Assembly (NCBI GenBank): GCA_038104845.1
Contig: JAYOBJ010000004.1
Location: forward strand, 14,129-78,128
Reading direction: 5' to 3'
Source: Methanobacteriota archaeon
Lineage (GTDB): Archaea; Thermoplasmatota; Poseidoniia; Poseidoniales; Poseidoniaceae
Length of the DNA stretch: 64,000 bases
The notes under the pieces were generated by a model, which ran no database searches, was not told the DNA's origin, and saw only the letters and a program-made list of their open reading frames with translations. Positions 2,179 to 15,512 of this stretch are shown here, piece after piece (positions within the stretch are counted from its first letter, which is position 1; the number at the start of each line of letters is the position of its first letter). A program made the translations under genes and the position numbers.

Positions 2179-3450
2179 TCACTGTACCGAAATGAATCCA
2201 GACGGGTCGGCATCGGCGTCGATGGTGGCATCGTATCCAATTTTGGACGTCTTTCCATCGCTGTACCTCGATGGGTCGAGGGAACTGCCGCGCTGATTGC
2301 TCAGGATGACGGTGTCTTTGTCGGGTTGCCAACGCGTCATCATGGCCCATTCAACACGGACGGGGTCGGCGATGTCGATGTCCTCGTCCACGACGGTGAC
2401 GATTTTCATGCTCTTGTGGCCGTTGAATGCCGCATGAATGGCTTTGATGCCGTCATCGGCGTTTTGTTTCTTGATCTTCAGCACCGCCCCAAGCCAACCG
2501 CAACCACCCTCGGTCATGTGGACGTCGGTGCAGTTGACGACTTTGTTGACCGCTTCTTTGATGGTGGGTGCTCGCGGCAACCCCATCAAGGTCTTGTGCT
2601 CGGCCTCACCTGGAATCAACGCGTGGAAGATTGGGTCCTTTCGGTGCACCAAGCCATCCACCTCGATCACAGGCTCCTGGCGCACATCATCAACGGTGCC
2701 CGTGATGTCGACGTACGGTCCCTCGTCGTCGTTCTCCAACGTGATGCGTCCCCACCATACATATTCCGCATCGGCAGGGGCGTGGACGCCGTTTGGCATT
2801 TCAACAAGGTGCAACGGCGTCCCGTAAAGGCGTTCGTGGAGGGCTGCTGCGATGGTCAGCTCGTCGATGTTCTCGTTGAACGACATCGCCGCTGCGAGCA
2901 ACACGACGGGGTCGGGAGCATTGACAACGGCGACGTTGACTTCCTCGCCCGCTGCCCGGGCCTCATCCACCATCGTTCGCAGGTGGCGCGGGACCAGGCG
3001 AACGACGAGGTGATTCCCATCTCGCAAAAACTGACGGTGGAACGACACGTTGCGAACACCGTTCCGTTCAGCGATGATGATGCTGGCCGAGGAATAACGG
3101 CCTCGGTCCTGGGGCCAATGGTGTGGGATGGGGACGGTCGTCAAATCCACCGACTCGGGTTGATGCTCGAAACATGCGGCTTCCGAACGTTCGACAAGGA
3201 CCGGCGTCGAGGGGTGTTTCATGGCCCACCCCAGGGTGTCGATGTAGGCCTCTGGTTCAATGCCGATGGCGGCGCACAAGCGGTCGCGGGTGAGCATGTT
3301 GATGGCGGAGGCGTGGCCAGGGCACTCCACGATGTTCTCGAAGACCAGCATGCCGTGGCCGCTTGCTTTGGAGCGTTCCATCATCTCGTGGATGAGGCTG
3401 GTCGGGTCCGCCACACGTGTCGCTGCGCCAAGGTGGTCTCGAAACGCCAT
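2179..3450 (-). CDS. UbiD-family (prFMN-dependent) decarboxylase
   Basis: Full-length similarity to the 3-octaprenyl-4-hydroxybenzoate carboxy-lyase family (N-terminal DHLG...GMLVFENIVECPG region, C-terminal WAMMTRWQPDKD). Start set at the internal ATG (MAFRDHL); the ORF extends to a TTG at 3537. Confidence 0.8.
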   Translation of the reverse strand: MAFRDHLGAATRVADPTSLIHEMMERSKASGHGMLVFENIVECPGHASAINMLTRDRLCAAIGIEPEAYIDTLGWAMKHPSTPVLVERSEAACFEHQPESVDLTTVPIPHHWPQDRGRYSSASIIIAERNGVRNVSFHRQFLRDGNHLVVRLVPRHLRTMVDEARAAGEEVNVAVVNAPDPVVLLAAAMSFNENIDELTIAAALHERLYGTPLHLVEMPNGVHAPADAEYVWWGRITLENDDEGPYVDITGTVDDVRQEPVIEVDGLVHRKDPIFHALIPGEAEHKTLMGLPRAPTIKEAVNKVVNCTDVHMTEGGCGWLGAVLKIKKQNADDGIKAIHAAFNGHKSMKIVTVVDEDIDIADPVRVEWAMMTRWQPDKDTVILSNQRGSSLDPSRYSDGKTSKIGYDATIDADADPSGFISVQ

Positions 3451-3561
3451 GTTGCATCGTGTCGGAACCGTCAATTGAATGTTGTTCAACCAACGCACAC
3501 GGGCAGTGCCAACGTTTCCGTCTTTTTCGCCTCGCAAAGGAGTGGACTGTGAGGGATTTGA

Positions 3562-6996: not shown

Positions 6997-7468
6997 TCCG
7001 TTCACCGGTGTCGTGGTCGGGCTGCACGTCAACCCCAACGGCGGGGTGCCCAAGCACCCCGTGGCAACCCTTCGGGTCCATTCCGAGGGTTGCGATGGAG
7101 ACCGCCAGAACGACCGCCGTCACCACGGTGGTCCCGACCGAGCGGTTTGCCTCATGGCGGAAGAAATCTTGACGGAATTGATCGCTGACGGTCATCCCAT
7201 TCATCCGGGGTCAACGGGTGAAAACGTGCTGATCTCCGGGATTGAACCCACGGCGTATGCACCGGGCGTCCACTTGAACTTTGAAAGCGGTGTGGTGCTG
7301 GAAATCACGACGGATGCCCCCCCTTGCGCCACCATTTCTGCATCGTTCATTGACGGCAGGTTCCACGCGCTGTCCCACAAACGGCAGGTGGCCGTCACCC
7401 GCTGGTACGCTCGGGTGGTCGAGGAAGGGAACCTGTCGTTGGGTCAGTCGGTCTTGCATTCTCAATGA
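6986..7468 (+). CDS. MOSC-domain protein (YiiM-like)
   Basis: MOSC-type beta-barrel motifs (GDRQNDRRHHGGPDRAVCL...GENVLISG). Overlaps the aEF-2 stop by 11 nt. Confidence 0.7.
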   Translation: MPSDPFTGVVVGLHVNPNGGVPKHPVATLRVHSEGCDGDRQNDRRHHGGPDRAVCLMAEEILTELIADGHPIHPGSTGENVLISGIEPTAYAPGVHLNFESGVVLEITTDAPPCATISASFIDGRFHALSHKRQVAVTRWYARVVEEGNLSLGQSVLHSQ

Positions 7469-9213
7469 AGACGGGCGAGTTGGAAATCCGTGAGTTCACG
7501 CAGAGCACGCAAGGCAGGGGTTTTGGGGAGCCGGTCCAGGCATTCATGGGCTTCTTGATGAAACGCTTCGGCACGTGAGCGAGCGTAGCCGATGGAACCG
7601 AGTTCATCCAAGGCCTGAAGGGCGGACTTGAGGACCTTGGGGTCAACGTTGTCACCGTGACCCAAGGCGGCGAGCAAGCGATCCTTCGCCGGCTGATCGG
7701 TTTGAGCAAGCGCATGAATGATCATCAACGTGCGCTTCCCTTGGGCCACATCGGAGCCTGCGGGTTTCCCCAAGGTGTCCGAATCCGAGAGCACATCGAT
7801 GAGGTCGTCCATCAGTTGGAAACACAAGCCAACAGCGAGCCCCCACTGAGCCATCAAGGCAATGACATCCTCGTCGGCCCCAGAGATGCGTGCGCCGATT
7901 TCAGCGCAGGTCAGGAACATCACGGCGGTTTTCCCTTCGATCATCTGAAGGTAGTCGGCTTCGTCCACGTCGAGCCGTTCTTCAAATTCGATGTCCATTT
8001 GCTGACCCTCACTGACCCTTCGAACCATCCACGCGATTCGGTTGACAAGTGGCGCCACGTCCTCTGGTTCGAGGTTCTCAGCCTGAACCAAGCGCTCAAA
8101 CGCAATCGCCAGCATGGCGTCGCCTGCATTGATGGCGGTCGGCATCCCGTACTCGATGTGGACGGCATTGCGCCCCCTTCGAAGTTCATCGTCGTCCATG
8201 ATATCGTCGTGGACCAGCGTAAAATTGTGCACGGTTTCAATGGCTGCACCGATGTCCAACAGCCCCGAATGGGTGTCACCGACGGCTTTGGCCACCAGCC
8301 ATGGTAAGGTCGCTCTCATGCGTTTTCCACCGCCTTCGATGAGGTGCATCATGGCTCGGCCAAGTCGCTCGTGTTGCGAGGCTTTGAGGCTGGATTCAAT
8401 CCGCCACTCGACCAAGGACTTGACCTCCCTGATGGACGTGAGAAGGTCGGCACCGACGGCGTCCGGGAGCATGTGGCTGACATCACCCATGTCGTGGATG
8501 AGGTCGTCCGACAACGCCTTGCTCGCTTCCACCTCCCCACAAGCATCCCACCATGCCTCGGTCATGATCCTCGCTGCAATGCAACGGAACCAAGGCGCGA
8601 CCACTTCACCGGGGGACGGTTCCGCCAACAGCATCGCTTCAAGTTCATCGTACGTGACCCATCGGGTGTCGGCCACCTCGTTGGGGTTTGGGTTCACCTG
8701 AAGGTCGGCTTTCATCACGAGAATGTGGTCCAGTTCACGTTCAATCCACGTTTCGTTCATCCGAGCAGCGTAACGCATTTTCGTCATGAACACCATGTCC
8801 TCCATCTTCAGGTGCTCCGGGTCGACGCCCAGTTCCTGTTCCATTTTTCGCACGGCGGCTCGCTTGACACCCATGGCGTTTTCCACATCAAGTTCCCCTT
8901 TGTCGTGGAGTGGATGGGAGCAACAGGTGTTGGCCCACACGCCTGGAAAGGTAACTTTGTCCTCCGACCGTTGTTGCAACAACAGTCGGTGTTGACTGTC
9001 AAAAACGAGCAAACTGAACGCCCGGTGAAATTGACCCTGTCCGCGGTGGGCTTCCACCTTGGATACCGGGCCCAAGACATTGTCCCATTCGTCAACGGCG
9101 ATCAGCGATTCCGCCATCAACGCTGCTTGATGCCGATCGTGGCCCTCGAGCTGCGAGCGTTCTTCATCGCTCAGCACGGTGTGCGGCACATCTTGGATTC
9201 CATAGCCTCCCAT
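7462..9213 (-). CDS. idi-ggps: bifunctional type-1 isopentenyl-diphosphate isomerase / geranylgeranyl-diphosphate synthase (fusion)
   Basis: N-terminal half is eukaryote-like type-1 IDI (HRAFSLLVFDSQHRLLLQQRSEDKVTFPGVWANTCCSHPL). C-terminal half is a trans-prenyltransferase with FARM LVHDDIMDDDELRRG (Phe at -5, short-chain type) and SARM FQLMDDLIDV. Start placed at internal ATG (MGGYGIQ); the ORF extends to 9318 and would then overlap IPK. Confidence 0.85.
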   Translation of the reverse strand: MGGYGIQDVPHTVLSDEERSQLEGHDRHQAALMAESLIAVDEWDNVLGPVSKVEAHRGQGQFHRAFSLLVFDSQHRLLLQQRSEDKVTFPGVWANTCCSHPLHDKGELDVENAMGVKRAAVRKMEQELGVDPEHLKMEDMVFMTKMRYAARMNETWIERELDHILVMKADLQVNPNPNEVADTRWVTYDELEAMLLAEPSPGEVVAPWFRCIAARIMTEAWWDACGEVEASKALSDDLIHDMGDVSHMLPDAVGADLLTSIREVKSLVEWRIESSLKASQHERLGRAMMHLIEGGGKRMRATLPWLVAKAVGDTHSGLLDIGAAIETVHNFTLVHDDIMDDDELRRGRNAVHIEYGMPTAINAGDAMLAIAFERLVQAENLEPEDVAPLVNRIAWMVRRVSEGQQMDIEFEERLDVDEADYLQMIEGKTAVMFLTCAEIGARISGADEDVIALMAQWGLAVGLCFQLMDDLIDVLSDSDTLGKPAGSDVAQGKRTLMIIHALAQTDQPAKDRLLAALGHGDNVDPKVLKSALQALDELGSIGYARSRAEAFHQEAHECLDRLPKTPALRALRELTDFQLARLH

Positions 9214-9271
9214 GGTCACGCCCCCTCCAAGGTCAGCGCGGCGGCTACATGAACAGTTCCACGGCGGTCGG

Positions 9272-10087
9272 TCAACGCTCGTCCGCCAGCAACGACGTTC
9301 CCACCACACTTTTGCCAAGGCAGGCGTCTGTAAGCCGGCCGCGAACCTCGCCGTTCACCAAGATGACCTCGCAACCGTCGCGAGCCGCCTCAAACCCTCG
9401 ATGCACCTTCAAACCAATGCCACCCGTGACGTCCATGTAGGCGGCGTGTTCCCCTTCAAACGCAGTGGATGGGGTCAGCACCTCGATCAGGTCTTGCTCA
9501 AATCCATCCACCGGTGGCGAGCGCAACACGCCATCAACCCCGCCCATGGCGAACACCACACGGGTCACGCGTTCCACCTCCTTGGCCAAGCGAGCCACGA
9601 GGTCATCCCCGGACAGGATGCCGAAGTCGCGGGGCGGTTCGCACGGCACAACATCGCCGTACGTCACCACGACGATGCCGTGGGGTGCCGTTCGAAAGAC
9701 CTCCAAATCGGCGCCGAAATTCAGCCCTGTTCCGTTGACCCAGCGGTGAGGAGACCACCGCACGGCGCTGACATCGTGTGCCGTGAGGGCGTCCATGACG
9801 CGATCGTTGAGTTCCAACATGTCCTGCTGAACGGCTTTGACCGCATCACCTTGCGTCATGTTGCCGTCGGTGAATCCATCGATGTGACCTTCTGCGAGCC
9901 GGTATTGTTTCGCTTTCAAATGACCAAACGAACCCGCTCCATGAACCAAGAGCACGTCGACGCCGTTGTTGATGACGGTCCGCAGTTCTTCAGCGAGGGC
10001 ATCAATGACCTGATCATTGACGGTTTTCATGGTGGATTTGTTGGTGATCAAACCCCCTCCCCATTTCACCACCACGCACGGTCGCAT
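9272..10087 (-). CDS. ipk: isopentenyl phosphate kinase (amino-acid-kinase fold)
   Basis: VVKWGGGLITNK glycine-rich loop, LVHGAGSFGH and the overall AAK fold typical of archaeal IPK. Confidence 0.85.
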   Translation of the reverse strand: MRPCVVVKWGGGLITNKSTMKTVNDQVIDALAEELRTVINNGVDVLLVHGAGSFGHLKAKQYRLAEGHIDGFTDGNMTQGDAVKAVQQDMLELNDRVMDALTAHDVSAVRWSPHRWVNGTGLNFGADLEVFRTAPHGIVVVTYGDVVPCEPPRDFGILSGDDLVARLAKEVERVTRVVFAMGGVDGVLRSPPVDGFEQDLIEVLTPSTAFEGEHAAYMDVTGGIGLKVHRGFEAARDGCEVILVNGEVRGRLTDACLGKSVVGTSLLADER

Positions 10088-10111: not shown

Positions 10112-10510
10112 ATGAGCCTATCGCCGTGTGGTGGGGCAAGCATTGATGTGCTTGAGCAAGAACCGGCTGCCATGGATGAACAACCCACGGTGGAGGCCTT
10201 CATGCGTCACCTGCAGGTGTGCTTGGAGGAGGCGGCCACCATTGGGGATGCCCAAGAGCGAGAGCAGCGTTGCTGGCAAATCGAAGCGGCGCTTCAAGAG
10301 GCCATTCTCTACAAGAACCGTGTGGAGCAGTTGCTGCAGCACGGTGTTGACCCGATTCACTTGGTTCAACCCGCTCCCGATGGCACGCGAGCCCCCGCCC
10401 CCCGAAAAATTGAGGCGCTCAACGGGTCACATCGGCACTGCCAGAAATGCGGTGCTGGGCTTGAAAACGATCTCGACTTCTGCCCGGCATGTGGGCACGA
10501 GAATGCGTGA
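10112..10510 (+). CDS. small zinc-ribbon protein
   Basis: C-terminal CQKCG-x11-CPACG ribbon. In the frame of ORF 9212..10510 but starting at the internal ATG after the IPK gene. Divergent from IPK. Confidence 0.5.
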   Translation: MSLSPCGGASIDVLEQEPAAMDEQPTVEAFMRHLQVCLEEAATIGDAQEREQRCWQIEAALQEAILYKNRVEQLLQHGVDPIHLVQPAPDGTRAPAPRKIEALNGSHRHCQKCGAGLENDLDFCPACGHENA

Positions 10511-11317: not shown

Positions 11318-12490
11318 ATGGTGAACGTGGCGATGGTCGGCGCTGGCCAAACCAAGTACGGCAATCATCCACTGGGGCTCAAAGGGATGTGGGCCGAGGC
11401 TGCTGAACAGGCCTTCGCGTCGATTGACGGTGACGTTGAACCCCAACAGGTGGACGAGGCGTTCATCGGTAGCCTGGCCTTCGGCGGGGCCCAATTGGGC
11501 AACACCGCCGCGTTGTTGACCGAGCACTCCCGAATGAAGGGCGTTCCGGTTCGCCGGGTGGAAAATGCATGCGCCTCTTCGGGTTACGCCCTTCGAGATG
11601 CCTGGATGGCCATCAAATCCGGTCAAGCGGACATCGTGGTGGCCGGTGGCATCGAGAAAATGAACGACTTAACACCCGAGCGCAAGCGGTACTGGCTCGG
11701 GGTGTCCGGTGACACGGAATGGGAACGCCTCGCTGGGTTGACCTTTCCTGGTACCTACGCCTTGATGGCACGCCGACATTTTCACGAACACGGAAGCACA
11801 CACGACGACCTCGTTCACATCAGTGTCAAAAATCATCTCCACGGGTCGATGAATGCCAAAGCACACATTCAGAAAGCGGTGGATTTCGAGAAAGCCGCCT
11901 CAGGCTTCATGGTGGCTGACCCCCTTACGCTGTACGACTGTTGCCCCACCTCGGACGGTGCTTCGTGCGTTGTGCTGGCGGCCGACCACGTCGCACGGCG
12001 ATTGACCGACACACCGGTGTGGATCAACGGGTCCGGTGCGGCCTCGGACCATCTGGCTCTCCACGACCGGCCAAGCATCACGCGACTCGCTGCCACCCAG
12101 CAAGCCGCTCGGCGAGCCTATGCCCAGGCCGGCGTGTCAGCAGGCGACATTGACCTTGCTGAGGTTCACGATTGCTTCACCATCGCCGAGTTGCTGGCCA
12201 CCGAAGACCTCGGTTTCGCAGCCGCCGGTGAAGGGGGTGTGTTCGCCCGCAACGGGGAGGGCCGCCTCAACGAGGGCGACGTCACCATCAACGCCAGTGG
12301 TGGCCTCAAATCGAAAGGTCATCCACTCGGTGCCACCGGAACCGGTCAAGCGGTCGAGGTCTTTCAACAACTTCGGCACGAGGTGGGGAACCAACGGCAA
12401 GTGCGCGACGCAGAAGTGGCCCTCACGCACAACGTGGGTGGTTCGGGTGCCACGTGTGCGGTCCATGTGTTCGGTCGGGAGGTGGCCTGA
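11318..12490 (+). CDS. thiolase (acetyl-CoA C-acetyltransferase, archaeal SCP-x-like type)
   Basis: Thiolase-fold motifs: VENACASSGYAL active-site Cys region, and C-terminal NASGGLKSKGHPLGATG, HNVGGSGAT. Start at MVNVAMVGAG. Confidence 0.85.
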   Translation: MVNVAMVGAGQTKYGNHPLGLKGMWAEAAEQAFASIDGDVEPQQVDEAFIGSLAFGGAQLGNTAALLTEHSRMKGVPVRRVENACASSGYALRDAWMAIKSGQADIVVAGGIEKMNDLTPERKRYWLGVSGDTEWERLAGLTFPGTYALMARRHFHEHGSTHDDLVHISVKNHLHGSMNAKAHIQKAVDFEKAASGFMVADPLTLYDCCPTSDGASCVVLAADHVARRLTDTPVWINGSGAASDHLALHDRPSITRLAATQQAARRAYAQAGVSAGDIDLAEVHDCFTIAELLATEDLGFAAAGEGGVFARNGEGRLNEGDVTINASGGLKSKGHPLGATGTGQAVEVFQQLRHEVGNQRQVRDAEVALTHNVGGSGATCAVHVFGREVA

Positions 12491-13308
12491 TGGACGAACA
12501 CCTTGTCTGGCAAGGTTACCTGCTCAGTCACCACGATGCGTTCACCGTGGTGCAATCGCCGTTCACGCTGACCGGCGCCCGTGTCTTTGGTGCAGACAGC
12601 GACCCAACCACCCTTGCCGTCGCTGCGTTGCTCCACCGGATCGGAACGGAACGGGTGGACTCGGTGAGCGTCCCTGAGGGCATGGACGGCCCCACCTTGG
12701 CCGCAGCATGCGGTGTGAAAGTGGCCAGCGAGGACGACCTTGATGCCTGCTCGTGGGACCTGATGCTCAGCGATGAGGCCGTGGTGGTGTTGGCCAAGCG
12801 TGGAGCGGACTTGACCATCCCCCACCTCGATGTCGAAGTGCCGGTCGATGCTCAAGAACACGCTGCTATGGAGGAGGCTTGGTCGAAGGAACTCCATCCG
12901 CAGCACGTGAGTCAAGGTGCCTTTGTGTCGGAGGCAGCGTACGTTGAGGGTGCGGGTGCTCGACTGGCCATGGAAGGTCAGCGAACCCGAGGCACCGTGG
13001 TGTGGCCGCCCCGCTTCGGCGACCACGGTTCAGCCGAGTCCACCAACGTCCACCGCACTGGCGAGGTGTTGTCGTGGACAGCGCTGAGCGCTGCGGGAGC
13101 CCCCTCGGAATTTGCGTTGCGAGCGCCGTTGTTGGGTGGCTTGGCCACGGTGTTGTTGCACTTGGAGGACGGGCCCAACGGTGTGTTCCTCCTGGTGGAC
13201 GATGAAGATCACGACATCACCATGGGGGCATCGGTGGAATTGGTCCTGCGTCGCCTTTACGCCCAAGAGGGGTTCATGCGTTACGGGCTTAAAGGTCGGC
13301 TCGTTTGA
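12490..13308 (+). CDS. thiolase-associated protein with a C-terminal DUF35-like OB-fold domain
   Basis: ATG overlaps the thiolase stop (TGATG). C-terminal 90 aa resemble the DUF35 OB-fold (GEVLSWTAL...GGLATVLLHLEDGPNGVFLLVDDEDHDITMGASVELVLRRLYAQEGFMRYGLKG) but carry no 4-Cys zinc ribbon. N-terminal 180 aa are unassigned. Confidence 0.6.
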   Translation: MDEHLVWQGYLLSHHDAFTVVQSPFTLTGARVFGADSDPTTLAVAALLHRIGTERVDSVSVPEGMDGPTLAAACGVKVASEDDLDACSWDLMLSDEAVVVLAKRGADLTIPHLDVEVPVDAQEHAAMEEAWSKELHPQHVSQGAFVSEAAYVEGAGARLAMEGQRTRGTVVWPPRFGDHGSAESTNVHRTGEVLSWTALSAAGAPSEFALRAPLLGGLATVLLHLEDGPNGVFLLVDDEDHDITMGASVELVLRRLYAQEGFMRYGLKGRLV

Positions 13309-14368: not shown

Positions 14369-14486
14369 ACGCACGCAAACGACCGTTCTATAGGACCGTC
14401 CATCGGTGTTCCACATCGCTCTCCTCGCAACGTGAACGTCGATGGGTCAAGGGACCTTTCATAAAGTGAAGGGACTACGCAACCCC

Positions 14487-15512
14487 ATGGCCAACGAAAC
14501 GCTGTACATTGGAATCGATTTGGGGACGTTCCGTTCCGTGATGGTGTCGTCCGACAGCCACGAAGTCGAAGAACTGACCGTCATCGGCACCCCCAAAGAC
14601 CCCATCGCGCGCAATTTCTTGAAGCGAGATGTGCTCTTCGGCCACGAGGCCCTGAAGAACCGCTTGGCACTCAACCTGTTCCGGCCGCTTGAACTCGGTG
14701 TCATCAAGGACACGCCAGAAGACCGCGAATTCATCGCCCACTTCATCACCCACCTCATCGGCTTGGCCGACCCCGAGGAATACGACCGTGTGGTCGCCGT
14801 CATCGGTGCACCGGCCGAAGCCAGCCACGTTGACAAGACGGCCATCTTTGACGCTGCAGCGGGTTCCGTGAACTCGGCCATGATCATTTCAGAACCGTTT
14901 GCTGTCGCCTACGCCTTGGACATGATCACCCACACCCTGGTCATCGACATCGGTGCCGGCACCACGGACTTGTGCCGTGTGTACGGGACCATCCCCGGCC
15001 CTGGCGACCAGATGCACACCGGTCACGCTGGCGACTTCGTTGACAACCAACTCATCAAGGAAATCACGGCCAAATACAACGGTGCACAGGTCACCAAGGA
15101 CATGGCTCGACGCTGGAAAGAACAGTACTCCTTCGTGTCCACCGCAACGCCTGACGAGCCCGTGCTTGTCGACTTCTCAATCGAAGGCAAGGCCATGACC
15201 CTCGACATCACCGATTGCATGCAGCGTGCCTGCGAATCGATCGTTGACCCCATCGTCGAGAACGTGAAGAAGCTCATCGCCGGTTCCAACCCCGAATACC
15301 ACGACGAGTTCCGCAAGAACATGGTCCTCGCCGGTGGCGGCTCGTCCATCAAGGGCCTTGGTGCCCTCATCGAACGGCGACTCTCCGACATGGGCGATGT
15401 GAACGTTCACGTTGTGGACGACCCCGTTCGCCTCGGTGCCATGGGTGGCCTTCGGTTGGCCATGGAAGTCCCCGAGGACATGTGGAAGAACCTCACCTTG
15501 GCATCTCGCTGA
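14487..15512 (+). CDS. actin-fold ATPase, MreB/archaeal-actin-like
   Basis: Phosphate-1 LYIGIDLGTFRS, connect-1 ISEPFAVAYALD, phosphate-2 LVIDIGAGTTD, adenosine motif VLAGGGSSIKGL, plus VDDPVRLGAMGG. Start at MANETLY. Confidence 0.75.
   Translation: MANETLYIGIDLGTFRSVMVSSDSHEVEELTVIGTPKDPIARNFLKRDVLFGHEALKNRLALNLFRPLELGVIKDTPEDREFIAHFITHLIGLADPEEYDRVVAVIGAPAEASHVDKTAIFDAAAGSVNSAMIISEPFAVAYALDMITHTLVIDIGAGTTDLCRVYGTIPGPGDQMHTGHAGDFVDNQLIKEITAKYNGAQVTKDMARRWKEQYSFVSTATPDEPVLVDFSIEGKAMTLDITDCMQRACESIVDPIVENVKKLIAGSNPEYHDEFRKNMVLAGGGSSIKGLGALIERRLSDMGDVNVHVVDDPVRLGAMGGLRLAMEVPEDMWKNLTLASR

Follow-up and report, generated by a model that had tools for sequence, protein, structure and literature searches.

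The gene pair at positions 11318 to 13308 of the window (the whole 64-kb stretch of DNA that was analysed) is, on balance, best explained as the Marine Group II (MGII; Poseidoniales) version of the archaeal thiolase–DUF35 module that starts the mevalonate pathway, in an operon that has lost HMG-CoA synthase (HMGCS). Its second gene encodes a DUF35-like protein (DUF35L), which would be the positional orthologue of the DUF35 scaffold subunit, with a lineage-specific 135-residue domain and a strongly conserved linker added at the N-terminus. The thiolase/HMGCS/DUF35 complex, a heteromeric channelling assembly with a shared CoA-binding site in which the small DUF35 protein normally connects the first two enzymes, pulls the unfavourable first step of archaeal isoprenoid-lipid synthesis forward. 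A scaffold in which the zinc site is lost, a unique domain gained and HMGCS unlinked would mean that the way into lipid synthesis has been re-engineered specifically in this lineage. The genes and domains considered below are the following.

7462 to 9318, minus strand: fusion of a type-1 IPP isomerase (NUDIX) with a GGPP/short-chain prenyl diphosphate synthase (IDI-GGPPS); context gene, conserved neighbour
9272 to 10087, minus strand: isopentenyl phosphate kinase (IPK); context gene, conserved neighbour in the related loci L001–L004
11318 to 12490, plus strand: archaeal SCP2-type acetoacetyl-CoA thiolase, 390 residues (Pfam, NCBIfam, best PDB match, motifs, neighbour-joining tree)
12488 to 12492, plus strand: TGATG stop/start overlap between the thiolase and DUF35-like genes
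12490 to 13308, plus strand: DUF35L, 272 residues, Poseidoniales-specific family (homologous clusters, family alignment)
12490 to 12894, plus strand: N-terminal orphan alpha/beta domain, residues 1–135 (AlphaFold model)
12895 to 12948, plus strand: linker, residues 136–153, HVSQGAYVSxAxYxE (family alignment, conservation, pLDDT)
12949 to 13047, plus strand: degenerate, Cys-free zinc-ribbon segment, residues 154–186 (hhalign to the canonical ribbon region, hmmsearch alignment to 6ESQ_E, Cys counts)
13003 to 13014, plus strand: WPPR, residues 172–175, remnant of the canonical FPPR (hhalign and hmmsearch alignments)
13048 to 13305, plus strand: DUF35 OB-fold domain, residues 187–272 (PF01796, hhalign, Foldseek)

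The upstream open reading frame begins with an ATG at 11318 and ends with a TGA at 12488–12490. Its assignment as a thiolase in the earlier note is borne out by matches to Pfam Thiolase_N and Thiolase_C_1 (1.5e-42), by a score exceeding the NCBIfam PRK06064 cut-off, and by its closest solved relative, the acetoacetyl-CoA thiolase of M. thermolithotrophicus (6ESQ_A; 2e-75). The motifs CxS, HDxF and GHx, as defined in PMC12960953, are all present, with Cys85 in CxS (NACAS, C85-A-S), HDCF at residues 284–287 and GHP at residues 334–336. The median identity between MGII and HMGCS-linked thiolases is 43%, compared to 57% among the HMGCS-linked enzymes themselves. In a neighbour-joining tree, the MGII thiolases occupy a long branch nested inside the HMGCS-linked clade, a position with weak support: the three outgroups were separated from everything else in 185 of 300 bootstraps, and the MGII sequences joined the outgroups in 46 of 300. 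As far as its sequence can tell, the MGII thiolase is most likely orthologous to the HMGCS-linked acetoacetyl-CoA thiolase, fast-evolving and catalytically intact.

DUF35L is encoded directly 3' of this SCP2-type thiolase gene and is coupled to it. The overlap that had been pointed out previously can be read from the junction itself (cc TGATG ga), where the ATG of DUF35L (12490–12492) shares the last base of the thiolase stop codon, an overlap of 1 nt. The corresponding overlap measures 4 nt in L003 and 11 nt in L001, and it is kept in the family down to a DUF35L only 49% identical to that of the window. Canonical thiolase–DUF35 pairs abut or overlap likewise. Among archaeal HMGCS loci, 65 of 77 from genomes and 93 of 97 from metagenomes have a thiolase following HMGCS, and where canonical loci were checked, a Cys4 DUF35 of 130–150 residues begins either at the thiolase stop or overlapping it, much like DUF35L in the window. 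The overlapping stop and start codons would allow DUF35L to be made in step with the thiolase, whose dimer it most likely binds, like every structurally characterised DUF35; we infer physical binding in the MGII pair from this precedent.

The first member of the canonical operon is missing from the neighbourhood, as the earlier note had stated. No HMGCS was found in the 64-kb window by Pfam (26 open reading frames of 237–618 residues) or by tblastn with the verified HMGCS chain 6ESQ_I as query (best match only E 2.4), and none occurs in the four related loci L001–L004 (20.8 kb each), so that neither the window nor these loci carry an HMGCS gene upstream of the thiolase in the same operon. HMGCS (EC 2.3.3.10, one gene cluster) is nevertheless listed among the core genes of MGII, with 148 of 158 and 72 of 92 MAGs carrying it (Tully 2019, PMC6336850, Suppl. 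Data 10). Our own HMGCS searches covered proteins, with M. thermolithotrophicus and Thermoplasmata queries, as well as genomic, viral and metagenomic contigs, the last by means of a GC-biased degenerate DNA pattern; the best-scoring matches, which are those listed, all came from other archaea. The literature search brought up no paper on MGII that also treats HMG-CoA synthase or DUF35. The favoured model would have HMGCS, encoded elsewhere in the genome, recruited in trans, and HMGCS would thereby presumably take part with the MGII thiolase–DUF35L pair.

The conserved neighbours of the pair belong to isoprenoid synthesis. The kinase scores 159 bits with NCBIfam IPPK_Arch (cut-off 120), and the fusion protein matches Pfam NUDIX and polyprenyl_synt, exceeds the TIGR02150 cut-off and is also matched by the IdsA/GGPP_syn models. 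IDI-GGPPS, IPK, the thiolase and DUF35L are grouped in loci whose DUF35L is 49–54% identical to the window's. Both isoprenoid genes lie on the strand opposite to the thiolase–DUF35L pair and are therefore not co-transcribed with it; immediately upstream of the thiolase is a divergently oriented KptA gene.

A paralogous ketothiolase/DUF35 pair with a role outside the mevalonate pathway, for instance in fatty-acid synthesis independent of ACP or in some other condensation or cleavage of acyl-CoA, would account for the missing HMGCS in the window and the four related loci and for a divergent thiolase on a long branch. Several gene clusters annotated as atoB exist in MGII, three in number (Tully 2019, PMC6336850), and the N-terminal domain would then recruit other enzymes (a reductase, a dehydratase) rather than HMGCS. 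We regard this alternative as rather improbable. The conserved neighbours are IPK and IDI-GGPPS, and no reductase (SDR, ketoacyl), MaoC dehydratase or enoyl reductase was found among the genes called in the 10 kb on either side in L001–L004. In the tree, the thiolase falls among its HMGCS-linked counterparts more frequently than with the outgroups, and it retains the HDxF motif of archaeal acetoacetyl-CoA thiolases. In addition, a non-exhaustive search encountered no Poseidoniales DUF35 of the small, canonical Cys4 kind. A use of the thiolase other than HMG-CoA formation, which the earlier note had offered as one of two options, is thus less likely, because of the positional orthology, the isoprenoid neighbourhood and the presence of HMGCS as a core MGII gene elsewhere; its other option, that the scaffolding is arranged in a divergent way, agrees in general terms with the results.

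DUF35L is not a chance open reading frame, since it has homologues of equal length (265–290 residues) in approximately 279 clusters at 90% identity. The family is restricted to Poseidoniales. It is evidently under purifying selection: 60 columns of the family alignment are invariant among members down to 44% identity, with conservation highest in the linker and the OB fold. With canonical operon DUF35s measuring 129–152 residues, the family members exceed the small single module of approximately 130–150 residues.

The C-terminal part of DUF35L carries the relationship to DUF35, the COG1545 family that combines a PF12172 zinc ribbon with a PF01796 OB fold. A profile alignment with 24 DUF35s from HMGCS–thiolase–DUF35 operons (hhalign, 97.2%, E 3.2e-11) covers residues 154–272 and spans DUF35 positions 9–130. 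The only match of the family profile in a PDB search was the DUF35 chain 6ESQ_E, which also ranks first among the top 19 Foldseek matches of DUF35L, all of them thiolase-associated DUF35 chains. Pfam searches likewise place a PF01796 OB-fold domain in the family, with 22 of 25 members matched (best 3.5e-6); in the window protein, the OB_ChsH2_C match comprises residues 187–253 (E 8e-4; 19.7 bits, under the 27.1 cut-off). Within the OB fold, 31 of 86 columns are invariant, including the motifs AGAPSEFxxRAP, GPxGVFLxVDDE and RRxYxQxxxxRYG. By these alignments, residues 154–272 are clearly homologous to a whole canonical DUF35, ribbon segment and OB fold together. The similarity to a DUF35 OB fold proposed earlier for the last 90 residues therefore stands, but its extent does not: because the hhalign alignment takes in the former ribbon segment, the DUF35-like part amounts to approximately 119 residues.

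The absence of a Cys4 ribbon, also proposed earlier, holds for the window protein and for the homologues compared with it. Residues 154–272 of the window protein contain no cysteine, all four zinc ligands being gone; CxxC is absent from the DUF35 part in 25 of 25 diverse homologues, which thus lack the two CxxC pairs of a rubredoxin-like Cys4 ribbon, and the PF12172 zinc ribbon finds no match among family members in Pfam searches. The C-terminal 119 residues most likely keep the DUF35 architecture without binding zinc through cysteines. In the full-length structural model, the C-terminal half has low confidence.

The remainder of the protein, described in the earlier note as an unassigned N-terminal region of 180 residues, does lack an assignment but is shorter, consisting of a discrete domain of approximately 135 residues followed by the conserved linker. 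The AlphaFold model of the N-terminal domain is a compact alpha/beta structure (pLDDT 91.3, pTM 0.84), with GxDSDxTT (residues 34–41) and W89 as invariants; its helix 121–134 is possibly the equivalent of the N-terminal DUF35 segment. The domain has no match in Pfam (21 members), none among PDB sequences at E values up to 10 and no Foldseek relative in the PDB or in BFVD, the latter also yielding no viral structural relatives. An HMM scan of 1.84 billion (1.84e9) representative proteins returned 42 matches, all of them family members or fragments of at most 290 residues, and none with the domain in another architecture. An origin by duplication of DUF35 was considered, and nothing was found by hhalign against operon DUF35s. 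Along the linker (residues 135–153), 7 of 19 columns are invariant at a mean pairwise identity of 65%, and the segment is predicted to be disordered in isolation (pLDDT <50).

In the MGII module, the N-terminal addition could lend stability to a ribbon that lacks zinc, or offer the unlinked partner or partners an additional surface on which to dock. A bolder version would make the N-terminal domain and the invariant linker a new assembly module, through which a zinc-free DUF35 tethers the thiolase to partners with which it is no longer encoded, for instance the distal HMGCS or other isoprenoid enzymes like the neighbouring IDI-GGPPS or IPK. If true, one of the most abundant archaeal groups of the ocean would have its own, rewired metabolon for substrate channelling, but we consider this version unlikely.

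A remnant thiolase fold at the N-terminus, as suggested in the earlier note, fares considerably worse. The N-terminal domain would in that case be a catalytically dead vestige of the N-terminal half of HMGCS or of a thiolase fold, joined to DUF35 during rearrangement of the operon. Its predicted order of elements after the first strands (alpha-beta-alpha-beta-alpha-beta-beta) resembles that of one thiolase half, and the sole local similarity in hhalign is collinear, pairing residues 14–52 (FGADSDPTTLAVAAL) with HMGCS residues 27–65 (PSPDEDTATIAVEAA). This short similarity is non-significant, however, with hhalign probabilities of 0.6–3.5% against HMGCS as single sequence or profile (3.5% for the profile) and pairwise E values of 0.1–0.012; the full-length family profile reaches 1% against the adjacent thiolase. 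No Pfam match to the thiolase, HMGCS or KAS III families of the thiolase superfamily was seen in 21 members even at E values up to 10, and the top 50 PDB matches of the pLDDT-91 model in Foldseek include no thiolase-like or HMGCS chain (best TM-score approximately 0.3). The E-C-H-N catalytic tetrad has no counterpart in the domain, and the canonical order puts HMGCS upstream of the thiolase and hence not adjoining DUF35. Profile, Pfam, PDB and fold searches all speak against such a vestige, which we consider highly improbable. Finally, although the DUF35 protein Trf (6HTJ) is among the Foldseek matches and a missing zinc site might point to a changed function, the idea that DUF35L acts outside thiolase biology, on its own, as an OB-fold or nucleic-acid-binding factor in the manner of Sulfolobus Trf, with the overlap as a historical relic, is barely tenable, given an overlap that persists across the family and closest sequence and fold matches to thiolase-bound DUF35s, with Trf-like proteins weaker.

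For the favoured explanation, an MGII version of the mevalonate thiolase–DUF35 module, several observations count on the other side: the divergence of the thiolase, the weak tree support, the three atoB clusters, the neighbours on the opposite strand and the low-confidence half of the structural model. Thiolase/DUF35 pairs also serve other pathways, one example being the fatty-acid synthase complex of S. acidocaldarius (bioRxiv 10.1101/2024.07.05.601840). With both the enzymes and the principle of the scaffold known already, the gain is incremental, a real but moderate variation. DUF35L nevertheless would offer a natural test of which parts of a DUF35 are needed for complex formation.

Among known systems, the S. 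acidocaldarius pair KT/DUF35 (Saci_1121/1120) resembles the MGII pair in lacking an adjacent HMGCS, and its DUF35 serves as an assembly hub for further fatty-acid synthase enzymes (bioRxiv 10.1101/2024.07.05.601840). By gene context, on which rather than on sequence this comparison is based, the two differ in that the MGII neighbourhood is isoprenoid and holds no reductase, dehydratase or enoyl-reductase genes. PhlB (5M3K), MucC (9VBO/9VBT), BbsA (7PXP), ChsH2-DUF35 (6OK1) and Shy-DUF35 (9MYR), all top Foldseek matches, share the OB core with DUF35L and, like it, pair with a thiolase-like partner gene. They are, in contrast, zinc-ribbon proteins or hydratase-fused domains without the MGII N-terminal domain, and their roles lie in secondary metabolism, steroid degradation and aromatic degradation. 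A further comparison is with the M. thermolithotrophicus complex (6ESQ). Unlike that system, DUF35L has no Cys4 ribbon and carries approximately 150 extra N-terminal residues (orphan domain plus linker), the MGII operon is without HMGCS, and the partner thiolase sits on a long branch. In both, the DUF35 gene directly follows an SCP2-type thiolase gene and overlaps it, and the [FW]PPR motif, the OB fold and the C-terminal RxxxxxGxxxYGxK of the 6ESQ DUF35 all align within residues 154–272 of DUF35L, for which this subunit is the best match by sequence profile and by fold.

The thiolase gene and the gene for its 272-aa DUF35-like partner, DUF35L, lie in the window among the following features (L001 and L003 are loci around DUF35L relatives):

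2179-3537, minus strand: UbiD-family decarboxylase (TIGR00148 above cut-off)
7462-9318, minus strand: IDI-GGPPS fusion with a type-1 NUDIX IDI (TIGR02150 above cut-off); also L001 5006-6733 and L003 4942-6693
about 10180-10510, plus strand: small ORF ending in the zinc-ribbon motif CQKCG...CPACG; also L001 7700-8035
11318 (ATG) to 12488-12490 (TGA), plus strand: thiolase, 390 aa
12490 (ATG) to 13308, plus strand: DUF35L, 272 aa
13352-14368, plus strand: protein of about 338 aa with CxxC pairs at each end
14442-15512, plus strand: actin-family gene (MreB/Salactin/Volactin-like)

The earlier note's reading of the first ORF as a thiolase whose stop overlaps the start of a 272-aa ORF (TGATG) is borne out. 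The two ORFs share one base, and the first, an SCP2-type archaeal thiolase, matches Pfam Thiolase_N and Thiolase_C_1, passes the NCBIfam PRK06064 cut-off and has 6ESQ_A as its nearest solved relative among PDB sequences (E 2e-75). 6ESQ_A is the acetoacetyl-CoA thiolase from the M. thermolithotrophicus thiolase/HMGCS complex. The window thiolase retains Cys85 in CxS, HDCF at 284-287 and GHP at 334-336; CxS, HDxF and GHx-type motifs are listed as characteristic of archaeal ACATs (PMC12960953).

The family to which DUF35L belongs comprises about 279 clusters (90% identity), every one of 265-290 aa. NCBIfam gives no match for the window protein, and the Pfam OB_ChsH2_C match in the single sequence (residues 187-253) is sub-threshold. 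The profile of 25 family members has a sole PDB match, the DUF35 subunit 6ESQ_E, with profile positions 158-273 corresponding to chain residues 12-126. The top 19 Foldseek matches of the full-length model are all DUF35 chains, 6ESQ_E leading, followed by PhlB, BbsA, MucC, ChsH2-DUF35, Trf and Shy-DUF35. From directly 3' of the thiolase in canonical HMGCS-thiolase-DUF35 operons, 36 DUF35 proteins were taken, of which 24 were aligned; hhalign pairs MGII (Marine Group II, Poseidoniales) residues 154-272 with positions 9-130 of this alignment (97.2% probability, E 3.2e-11). At the level of profile comparison, residues 154-272 match essentially the whole canonical DUF35, so that the similarity proposed earlier stands but is not confined to the last 90 residues. 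The ribbon-aligned segment has WPPR in place of the canonical FPPR and contains no cysteine; none of 25 homologues has a CxxC there or matches the Pfam DUF35_N ribbon model, which agrees with the reported absence of a Cys4 ribbon. Among the compared HMGCS/thiolase loci, L063 (4799-5197) encodes, within an HMGCS-thiolase-DUF35 operon, a 131-aa canonical-size DUF35 with all four ribbon cysteines gone and YFPPR kept, an independent Cys4 loss without N-terminal extension. Its contig bears the name of a bacterium, Candidatus Puniceispirillum, but is probably archaeal and misbinned.

Four related loci were compared, each of 20.8 kb with 10 kb on either side of the gene, in which DUF35L is 49-54% identical to that of the window. 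Gene order does not vary among them (IDI-GGPPS fusion, IPK, small zinc-ribbon ORF, KptA, thiolase, DUF35L, 338-aa protein of unknown function, actin-like gene), and the thiolase and DUF35L genes have 4 or 11 nt in common. As had been noted, no HMGCS adjoins the pair: within the window, neither Pfam searches of 26 ORFs (237-618 aa) nor tblastn (best E 2.4) revealed one, and none was found in the four related loci. Among archaeal HMGCS loci, by contrast, 65 of the 77 informative ones from genomes and 93 of the 97 from metagenomes carry a thiolase directly 3' of HMGCS; where checked, a 129-152-aa Cys4 DUF35 begins at or over the thiolase stop. Taken with the nearby absence of HMGCS, this order indicates that the MGII DUF35L gene corresponds by position to DUF35, HMGCS having been lost from the operon. 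Such unlinking is not unique to MGII, since several DPANN-type MAGs (L036, L041, L045, L074) carry an archaeal-type HMGCS without a thiolase within 6 kb downstream.

The best-scoring HMGCS matches listed in protein and DNA searches included none from Poseidoniales and came from other archaea. The "MGII Core" sheet of Supplementary Data 10 in Tully 2019 (PMC6336850) lists HMG-CoA synthase (EC 2.3.3.10) as a single gene cluster, in 148/158 and 72/92 MAGs, alongside atoB (three clusters), mvaA and mevalonate kinase. This listing, together with the absence at the loci examined, indicates that MGII have an HMGCS, unlinked from this thiolase-DUF35L pair.

Several neighbours merit mention. A single ORF, conserved across Poseidoniales loci and adjoining IPK, joins type-1 IPP isomerase to a GGPP/short-chain prenyl diphosphate synthase; type-1 IDI and its fusion with a prenyl synthase seem unusual in archaea. 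The UbiD gene near the isoprenoid genes could encode the archaeal mevalonate pathway's anhydromevalonate-phosphate decarboxylase; another UbiD gene lies at the L001/L002 edge. The small zinc-ribbon ORF, conserved in related loci and flanked by IPK and KptA but on the other strand, gives a weak Pfam Zn_Ribbon_1 match in L001. The protein of about 338 aa has no Pfam or NCBIfam match; its gene always lies between DUF35L and the actin-family gene in the Poseidoniales loci compared, and the protein is possibly a partner, so far uncharacterised, of archaeal actin. Because the gaps flanking its gene are short (44 nt after DUF35L, 74 nt before the actin gene), all four genes from the thiolase onward could share one transcript.

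Of the two possibilities first suggested, a divergent scaffold arrangement is somewhat better than an even bet. DUF35L would be co-produced with the thiolase and bound to it, as, to our knowledge, every structurally known DUF35 is to its thiolase-like partner; the complex would feed acetoacetyl-CoA into the mevalonate pathway, and HMGCS would join it in trans. The other possibility, thiolase use outside HMG-CoA formation, is kept as the main rival, in the form of a paralogous module serving another acyl-CoA pathway. The S. acidocaldarius fatty-acid synthase complex is such a KT/DUF35 module outside the mevalonate pathway (bioRxiv 10.1101/2024.07.05.601840), but the isoprenoid neighbourhood and the absence of reductase or dehydratase genes nearby make this reading unlikely. 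Compared with 65 HMGCS-linked thiolases, which have a median identity of 57% among themselves, the MGII thiolase reaches a median of only 43%. A rough NJ tree, with outgroups taken from PDB (BbsB, an SCP2-thiolase, 4YZO, 7YVY), nests the MGII thiolases as a long branch within the HMGCS-linked clade, beside a Thermoplasmata sequence; the split of three outgroups from everything else appears in 185/300 bootstraps, that of MGII plus outgroups in 46/300. The tree is not decisive but favours a fast-evolving orthologue. The long branch and lower identity suggest accelerated evolution, plausibly co-evolution with the altered DUF35 partner.

Residues 1-135 of DUF35L, modelled with a 21-sequence alignment, form a compact alpha/beta domain (pLDDT 91.3, pTM 0.84). 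No member tested matches Pfam in this region, and PDB sequences give no match either, both at E up to 10; Foldseek gives nothing significant in PDB (best, chorismatase, E 0.08, TM 0.30) or BFVD, and hhalign no match to operon DUF35s. Against 1.84 billion representative proteins, its profile has 42 matches, all DUF35L family members of at most 290 aa or fragments. The most divergent members also lack Cys4 and share the same motifs, and those of these divergent clusters that have a named source come from Poseidoniaceae or an unclassified Euryarchaeota MAG. With no significant sequence, profile or structure relative outside the family, the domain is an orphan.

The proposal that this region is a remnant thiolase fold is not upheld: no thiolase-like chain occurs among the top 50 PDB Foldseek matches, and the full-length profile aligns to the adjacent thiolase with 1% hhalign probability. 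Derivation from an HMGCS remnant is likewise improbable. Against the verified 6ESQ_I HMGCS sequence or a 15-sequence HMGCS profile, only residues 14-52 align, with HMGCS 27-65, and the motif match (DSDxTTLAVAA with DEDTATIAVEAA) is collinear but reaches just 0.6-3.5% probability. A Trf-like, non-thiolase role of DUF35L is a minor reading and highly improbable.

In the preferred scaffold arrangement, the N-terminal module would either stand in structurally for the vanished zinc site or offer a further surface for docking. It is joined to the DUF35 part by a linker (about residues 135-153, HVSQGAYVSxAxYxE) that is predicted to be disordered in isolation and is conserved to about the same degree as the OB fold (65% and 67% mean pairwise identity; N-domain 47%, ribbon-like segment 39%). 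Conservation of a segment disordered in isolation is typical of partner-induced folding.

No paper describing DUF35L was found in the literature search, and protein-database source annotations read "hypothetical" or "uncharacterized OB-fold protein". DUF35 scaffolding itself is known; new is the combination, in Poseidoniales only, of a Cys-less DUF35, an orphan N-terminal domain and an HMGCS-less operon. Noteworthy to specialists if not very surprising, DUF35L is useful mainly as a natural experiment in how DUF35 scaffolds work, and as a hint that abundant marine archaea have rewired lipid-precursor synthesis in a lineage-specific way. It shares with the M. thermolithotrophicus DUF35 (6ESQ_E) a homologous ribbon region and OB fold, and differs from it in having dispensed with Cys4.
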